NCBI RefSeq assembly: GCF_003334335.1
Contig: NZ_QOWQ01000001.1
From: Escherichia coli
GTDB taxonomy: Bacteria; Pseudomonadota; Gammaproteobacteria; Enterobacterales; Enterobacteriaceae
Length of the DNA stretch: 64,000 bases
Direction: 5' to 3' (one strand)
How positions within the stretch are numbered: position 1 is the first letter of the stretch; each line of letters opens with the position of its first letter. Below the pieces are notes generated by a model, which searched no databases, had not been told where the DNA came from, and was given only the letters and a program-made list of their open reading frames with translations. This document shows, piece by piece, positions 58,531 to 59,629 of the stretch. Both the position numbers and the translations under genes were made by a program.

Positions 58531-59629
58531 ATGTTTGAAATTAATCCGGTAAATAATCGCATTCAGGACCTCACGGAACGCTCCGACGTTCTTAGGGGGT
58601 ATCTTTGACTACGACGCCAAGAAAGAGCGTCTGGAAGAAGTAAACGCCGAGCTGGAACAGCCGGATGTCTGGAACGAACCCGAACGCGCACAGGCGCTGG
58701 GTAAAGAGCGTTCCTCCCTCGAAGCCGTTGTCGACACCCTCGACCAAATGAAACAGGGGCTGGAAGATGTTTCTGGTCTGCTGGAACTGGCTGTAGAAGC
58801 TGACGACGAAGAAACCTTTAACGAAGCCGTTGCTGAACTCGACGCCCTGGAAGAAAAACTGGCGCAGCTTGAGTTCCGCCGTATGTTCTCTGGCGAATAT
58901 GACAGCGCCGACTGCTACCTCGATATTCAGGCGGGGTCTGGCGGTACGGAAGCACAGGACTGGGCGAGCATGCTTGAGCGTATGTATCTGCGCTGGGCAG
59001 AATCGCGTGGTTTCAAAACTGAAATCATCGAAGAGTCGGAAGGTGAAGTGGCGGGTATTAAATCCGTGACGATCAAAATCTCCGGCGATTACGCTTACGG
59101 CTGGCTGCGTACAGAAACCGGCGTTCACCGCCTGGTGCGTAAAAGCCCGTTTGACTCCGGCGGTCGTCGCCACACGTCGTTCAGCTCCGCGTTTGTTTAT
59201 CCGGAAGTTGATGATGATATTGATATCGAAATCAACCCGGCGGATCTGCGCATTGACGTTTATCGCGCGTCCGGCGCGGGCGGTCAGCACGTTAACCGTA
59301 CCGAATCTGCGGTGCGTATTACCCACATCCCGACCGGGATCGTGACCCAGTGCCAGAACGACCGTTCCCAGCACAAGAACAAAGATCAGGCCATGAAGCA
59401 GATGAAAGCGAAGCTTTATGAACTGGAGATGCAGAAGAAAAATGCCGAGAAACAGGCGATGGAAGATAACAAATCCGACATCGGCTGGGGCAGCCAGATT
59501 CGTTCTTATGTCCTTGATGACTCCCGCATTAAAGATCTGCGCACCGGGGTAGAAACCCGCAACACGCAGGCCGTGCTGGACGGCAGCCTGGATCAATTTA
59601 TCGAAGCAAGTTTGAAAGCAGGGTTATGA
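58531..59629 (+). CDS. prfB: Peptide chain release factor 2, 365 aa, made by programmed +1 frameshift (codons 1-25 in frame 0, remainder in frame +1 from 58607)
   Basis: ATG 58531 gives [25 protein letters not shown] then in-frame TGA at 58606-58608; the +1 frame continues [18 protein letters not shown]... to 59629 (ORF-track 58748..59629 is in that frame); GGQ motif present. Confidence 0.95.
58594..58609 (+). other. prfB +1 frameshift site (internal SD-like element, slippery CUU, UGA)
   Basis: agggggtatctttgac = AGGGGG UAU CUU UGA C, the classical RF2 autoregulatory frameshift cassette. Confidence 0.95.

Follow-up and report, generated by a model that had tools for sequence, protein, structure and literature searches.

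The programmed +1 ribosomal frameshift site of prfB in a 64-kb stretch of Escherichia coli chromosome

The DNA at 58531–58609 of the stretch analysed here (64,000 nucleotides in all; hereafter the window) is, with a probability of about 0.99, the programmed +1 ribosomal frameshift site of E. coli prfB, the gene for release factor 2 (RF2). The prfB +1 frameshift has been understood since the 1980s, and the site found here is already known, already annotated and ordinary. Judged by its sequence, it is the type example of the prfB frameshift family, more than a relative, with every feature that defines the family at that level in place. The anatomy of the site, the fused product, the annotation and the conservation described below come from the present analysis; that ribosomes shift frame, how often they do so and that this depends on RF2 are published for the same sequence. 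The site is a classic example of translational autoregulation via programmed frameshifting, and nothing new follows from its presence in a window of E. coli DNA.

Anatomy of the site and its fused product

Translation from the prfB start codon (ATG, 58531–58533) runs for 25 codons and reaches an in-frame UGA at 58606–58608, and the +1 frame then extends from 58607 to 59629 as 340 sense codons followed by a UGA stop (Table 1). Both the interruption after codon 25 and the 340 downstream codons had been proposed in a first-pass annotation of this DNA, and translation bears them out. The string AGGGGG UAU CUU UGA C, which the same annotation had placed at 58594–58609 with a Shine-Dalgarno (SD)-like element 3 nt from the slippery CUU, is exact to the letter, and the hexamer ends 3 nt upstream of CUU. 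In PMC12421855, the canonical prfB site consists of AGGGGG, a 3-nt spacer, CUU U, UGA and C, and all of these elements are present here at the spacing described there. The complete 16-mer occurs only once in the window, even when 2 mismatches are allowed (0.04 expected). The heptamer CTTTGAC occurs 13 times in the window, with both strands counted, and by itself is therefore not specific.

Table 1. Components of the prfB frameshift site, and RNA families matched elsewhere in the window.
Feature	Coordinates	Strand	Basis or remark
prfB ORF1, codons 1–25 of RF2, frame 0	58531..58605	+	Equals residues 1–25 of solved E. coli RF2; start of the RefSeq joined CDS
Internal SD-like AGGGGG (Arg22 AGG, Gly23 GGG)	58594..58599	+	Read from sequence; strongest pairing with the 16S rRNA 3' end in prfB
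Spacer, 3 nt, codon UAU (Tyr24), in the E site during the ribosome pause	58600..58602	+	Read from sequence
Slippery sequence CUU U, P-site tRNA-Leu moving from CUU to UUU	58603..58606	+	Sequence; CTTT run is the slippery sequence in PMC12421855
In-frame UGA, codon 26 of frame 0, autoregulation sensor read only by RF2	58606..58608	+	Sequence; function from PMC12421855, PMC5373646
C after the stop (UGA C), weak termination context	58609..58609	+	Sequence; highly conserved per PMC12421855
prfB ORF2, +1 frame, GAC (Asp26) to Leu365 plus UGA stop 59627–59629	58607..59629	+	Translation; TIGR00020; alignment to PDB RF2; RefSeq CDS end
6S/SsrS RNA	38647–38830	-	Rfam gathering-level match, 139.8 bits
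Sib antitoxin RNA	37848–37998	-	Rfam gathering-level match, 133.8 bits
naRNA4/CssrE	52341–52418	-	Rfam gathering-level match, 75 bits
ES036/CssrF	24734–24776	-	Rfam gathering-level match, 47.3 bits

Upstream, the +1 frame contains no stop as far back as 58553, and its first ATG, GTG or TTG comes only at 58748. Because no earlier start codon is available in this frame, a six-frame list of open reading frames gives only 58748..59629 (293 aa), so the frameshift explains the truncated ORF in the way that had been suggested. The practical value of recognizing the site is one of annotation only; a gene caller unaware of recoding yields that truncated RF2 or a pseudogene.

To obtain the fused product, we joined the frame-0 translation of 58531–58605 to the +1 translation of 58607–59626, giving 25 + 340 = 365 aa. 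The fusion scored 525.9 bits against the NCBIfam model TIGR00020 (peptide chain release factor 2; curated cut-off 370), and the match spans residues 12–362, thus crossing the junction. RF1 models gave about 305 bits on the same protein, under their own cut-offs. Among PDB sequences, residues 1–365 of the fusion aligned to residues 1–365 of E. coli RF2 (1gqe, 1ml5 and others; E about 1e-240), with Leu25-Asp26 contiguous and gap-free at residues 25/26 in the alignments to RF2 chains. The comparison with RF2 that the first-pass annotation had put forward as a check thus came out in its favour, as the 365-aa fusion aligns with RF2 straight across the junction. Craigen et al. are said to have reported the Leu25-Asp26 junction peptide in 1985. 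The RF2-type motifs SPF (residues 205–207) and GGQ (residues 250–252) are both present in the fusion, and the sequence assigns the gene to the class-I release factors of RF2 type.

The only difference from K-12 prfB lies far from the site, at RF2 residue 246 (window 59266–59268). The window has Ala at this position, as do E. coli B, most isolates and 1gqe, and the K-12 protein (1ml5 and others) has Thr. From Ala246 it follows that the window is not of K-12 lineage and that its RF2 allele is the more active B type that PMC5373646 discusses.

The segment 58594–58604 has the strongest predicted anti-SD pairing in the whole prfB mRNA (−11.7 kcal/mol) and ranks in the top 0.08% of all 10-mers on the + strand of the window. 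No significant mRNA structure was predicted around the site (58570–58690 folded, z = −0.29 vs. shuffled sequences), and a stimulatory hairpin or pseudoknot was rejected because this folding was no better than that of shuffled sequence. A permissive scan of 57500–60500 returned no Rfam family at the locus, as one would expect of a signal carried by a linear motif and not by a structured RNA. The absence of structure and of an Rfam match is consistent with a mechanism that would act through rRNA pairing, and not through a hairpin or pseudoknot.

The second-strongest anti-SD complementarity in prfB, GGAAGGUGA at 59037–59047, is predicted at −11.4 kcal/mol, nearly that of the frameshift site, and has neither a slippery sequence nor a stop downstream. 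It is probably no more than a Glu-Gly-Glu coding stretch, though translation might conceivably pause there.

Annotation and conservation

In RefSeq, prfB on identical DNA from E. coli strain M217 is a CDS joined from two pieces and carries the note "programmed frameshift". This places the window on the E. coli chromosome, where the feature was already annotated. On RefSeq E. coli chromosomes, the prfB locus sits between recJ and lysS. A megablast search with 58400–59700 found one copy of prfB per genome in 5,426/5,426 complete E. coli genomes, several of them 100% identical to the query. The 79 bases at 58531–58609 were recovered at ≥99% identity, which for a query of this length means an exact match, in 5,401/5,426 independent complete assemblies, and the interrupted layout is thus no sequencing error. 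A continuous single-frame RF2 ORF, the outcome that the first-pass annotation had named as speaking against it, did not turn up at this locus. One of the 5,426 assemblies has its single prfB copy on a record whose replicon type is given as plasmid; this replicon is probably mislabelled.

We scanned one genome per species from 100,044 species with the 14-base pattern TAGGGGGNNNCTTTGAC, which matched at least 120 stretches. For each stretch, the upstream frame-0 peptide was fused to the downstream +1 ORF and compared with the RF2 of the window. Among the matches listed, 102/120 (85%) were RF2 (prfB), and the remaining 18/120 were unrelated chance occurrences. All 101 prfB loci with full flanks among the matches listed have a stop after codon ~25 and the rest of RF2 in the +1 frame; where these loci are long enough, their alignment to the window protein starts at residue 1–2 and ends at 365. 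Identity to the window protein (blastp) ranged from 28 to 99.7% among the matches listed (median 53%). Loci cut short gave the lowest values, and among the full-length loci in the matches listed, RF2 identity went down to about 43%. The hosts of the listed prfB loci include Enterobacterales, Vibrio, Shewanella, Pseudomonadales, Bacillus, Paenibacillus, lactobacilli, streptococci and others. In the flanks of the listed loci, third codon positions were near random (0.0–0.3 bits).

Because the motif was itself the query, its fixity among the matches is circular, and the scan locates the motif without giving the share of prfB genes that carry it, a figure for which the literature is the source. 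The informative result is that the pattern falls in one gene, and at one codon, in 85% of the listed matches. The spacer codon varied: among the matches listed, 100 distinct prfB loci of other species had TCT (43), TAT (38), TAC (12) or another codon (the rest), with an invariant 3-nt spacer length because the search pattern fixed that length. The prfB sites of other bacteria (Bacillota, other Gammaproteobacteria) are like that of the window in their position after codon ~25, their SD-like element, CTTTGAC and the 3-nt spacing. They differ in that the spacer is often TCT (Ser), vs. TAT (Tyr) here, and in that TTT or ATT precedes AGG, vs. CTT in the window.

In Belliella buryatensis, the TAGGGGGNNNCTTTGAC motif was found in three contigs of one genome (13184–13200, 68–84 and 68–84). 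These copies share the same 19-residue upstream translation, PKKLLNSGGSLCSADRGSL, and differ in the sequence downstream; they seem to mark where a repeated or mobile element ends and are unrelated to prfB.

Mechanism and alternative explanations

In the published description of the prfB site, the SD-like AGGGGG is followed three nucleotides downstream by CTTT, then by TGA and then by a C that weakens termination, and across >12,000 genomes the prfB frameshift motifs have AGGGGG as their consensus (PMC12421855). When RF2 is high, termination occurs at the UGA; when RF2 is low, the pause is longer and the SD-like element pairs with the anti-SD, after which tRNA-Leu slips to +1, GAC moves into the A site and full-length RF2 results (PMC12421855). 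Ribosome profiling at the endogenous prfB locus gave frameshifting of ~28% in K-12; with the B-type RF2 allele the value was ~21%, and in the absence of RF3 it was ~47% (PMC5373646).

Placed on the coordinates of the window, ribosomes would initiate at AUG 58531, read 25 codons and then pause with tRNA-Leu on CUU (58603–58605) in the P site and the RF2-specific UGA (58606–58608) in the A site, the UGA-C providing what would be a weak stop context. If RF2 were plentiful, it would bind the UGA and the 25-residue peptide would be released. If RF2 were scarce, the pause would be longer; AGGGGG (58594–58599), 3 nt upstream of CUU, would pair with the 3' end of 16S rRNA, and the peptidyl-tRNA-Leu would re-pair one base downstream, on UUU (58604–58606). 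GAC (58607–58609) would then be the next codon, and 340 more codons would be read to give the full 365-aa RF2. The expected outcome is that RF2 would control its own synthesis. That this is the textbook autoregulatory frameshift, as the first-pass annotation had held, is supported by the RF2 fusion, by the RefSeq note and by the canonical elements and their spacing; the shift itself is published.

An interrupted frame can also be produced by a sequencing or assembly error, or mark a pseudogene. The true gene would then be one continuous ORF, with the extra base an artefact or an inactivating mutation, and single-frame prfB does occur in databases, namely in 3/5,426 complete E. coli assemblies with GGGG for GGGGG. 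This explanation is extremely improbable, however, given the conservation of the 79 bases in 5,401 of the assemblies, the presence of exactly one copy per genome and the recurrence of the same interrupted layout, at the same codon, in distant phyla. RF2 is moreover an essential, single-copy factor, and prfB therefore cannot be a pseudogene. Nor does the locus appear to encode a 25-aa leader peptide on the one hand and, on the other, a truncated RF2 begun independently at ATG 58748 (the 293-aa ORF). That ATG is the earliest start codon in the +1 frame, as such a model would have it, but the 47 codons from 58607 to 58747 are open, contain no start codon, are identical in translation to residues 26–72 of solved full-length RF2 and are conserved as protein between species. 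The TIGR00020 match also begins at residue 12 and crosses the junction. An independent start at 58748 was rejected because the conserved RF2 residues 26–72 are encoded upstream of it, and we give it a vanishingly small chance.

Some other form of recoding might instead bypass the UGA, whether by readthrough, by selenocysteine insertion or by transcriptional slippage that adds or removes an mRNA base; in other genes, UGA serves for selenocysteine and for leaky readthrough. Here, however, the sequence read in frame 0 past the UGA is unrelated and meets a further stop 32 codons on, and readthrough thus cannot yield RF2. No structured element was found downstream (folding of 58570–58690; Rfam scan of 57500–60500). 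Against transcriptional slippage, the T run is 3 bases and the G run 5, below the lengths known to support it. Taken as a group, these routes are next to impossible at this locus, and the programmed +1 frameshift remains the preferred explanation, with none of the results speaking against it.

The three assemblies with GGGG in place of the GGGGG of the SD-like element are NZ_CP031355.1 (strain O145 RM8995-C1), NZ_CP029973.1 (51008369SK1) and NZ_CP024650.2 (BH100 MG2014). In this variant, prfB is a single continuous ORF of 365 codons, reading RG-IF-DYD vs. RGYL-DYD. In the one record examined, that of RM8995-C1 (locus 1301–1378), prfB is annotated without a frameshift. The variants could be either homopolymer assembly errors or true natural losses of prfB autoregulation; if they are true, the frameshift would be dispensable in some isolates. 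As a separate reading, the 25-residue peptide released whenever RF2 prevails at the UGA might be functional in itself and more than a by-product, which we consider very unlikely.

Among known systems, the site agrees with the E. coli prfB +1 frameshift (Craigen and Caskey, 1986; reviewed in PMC12421855) in its elements, spacing and 365-aa product, and its DNA is 100% identical to RefSeq E. coli chromosomes annotated as 'programmed frameshift'. Two other systems bear a partial likeness to it, both compared here from established knowledge. The −1 frameshift of E. coli dnaX is likewise a case of recoding in an essential gene with an internal SD-like element that pairs with 16S rRNA. It differs, however, in the direction of the shift, in its slippery sequence (A AAA AAG), in its longer SD spacing and in requiring a downstream hairpin, whereas the prfB site has no significant predicted structure; dnaX also has neither a stop-codon sensor nor autoregulation. 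Eukaryotic antizyme resembles prfB in that its autoregulatory loop, too, works through a +1 shift at an in-frame UGA that serves as the sensor. The antizyme gene is unrelated, however, and senses polyamine level, where prfB senses release-factor level; its shift is stimulated by an mRNA pseudoknot and by upstream elements, in contrast to rRNA pairing in prfB.

Neighbouring features of the locus

A promoter and terminator scan of 58300–59800 gave nothing above shuffled expectation and so located no prfB promoter. The intergenic region between recJ and prfB contains a stable hairpin, AAGAGCGUGGAUUGGGUACAAUCCCGCUCUU, at 58460–58490; the 90-nt spacer folds at −22.1 kcal/mol (z = −3.44). An A-run lies upstream of the hairpin on the + strand, so that the T-tract falls on the minus strand, which is also the only strand flagged there by the terminator scan. 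Candidate roles are a recJ terminator, a bidirectional terminator or something else.

Opposite nearly all of prfB, the minus strand carries an antisense ORF of 334 aa (58592..59596) with no RefSeq annotation, which we treated as a mechanical shadow ORF. At the other end of the gene, the prfB stop UGA (59627–59629) overlaps a GAGG SD-like sequence, and the lysS ATG follows at 59639, 9 nt on. This tight prfB-lysS spacing (59627–59641) agrees with co-translation or an operon arrangement.
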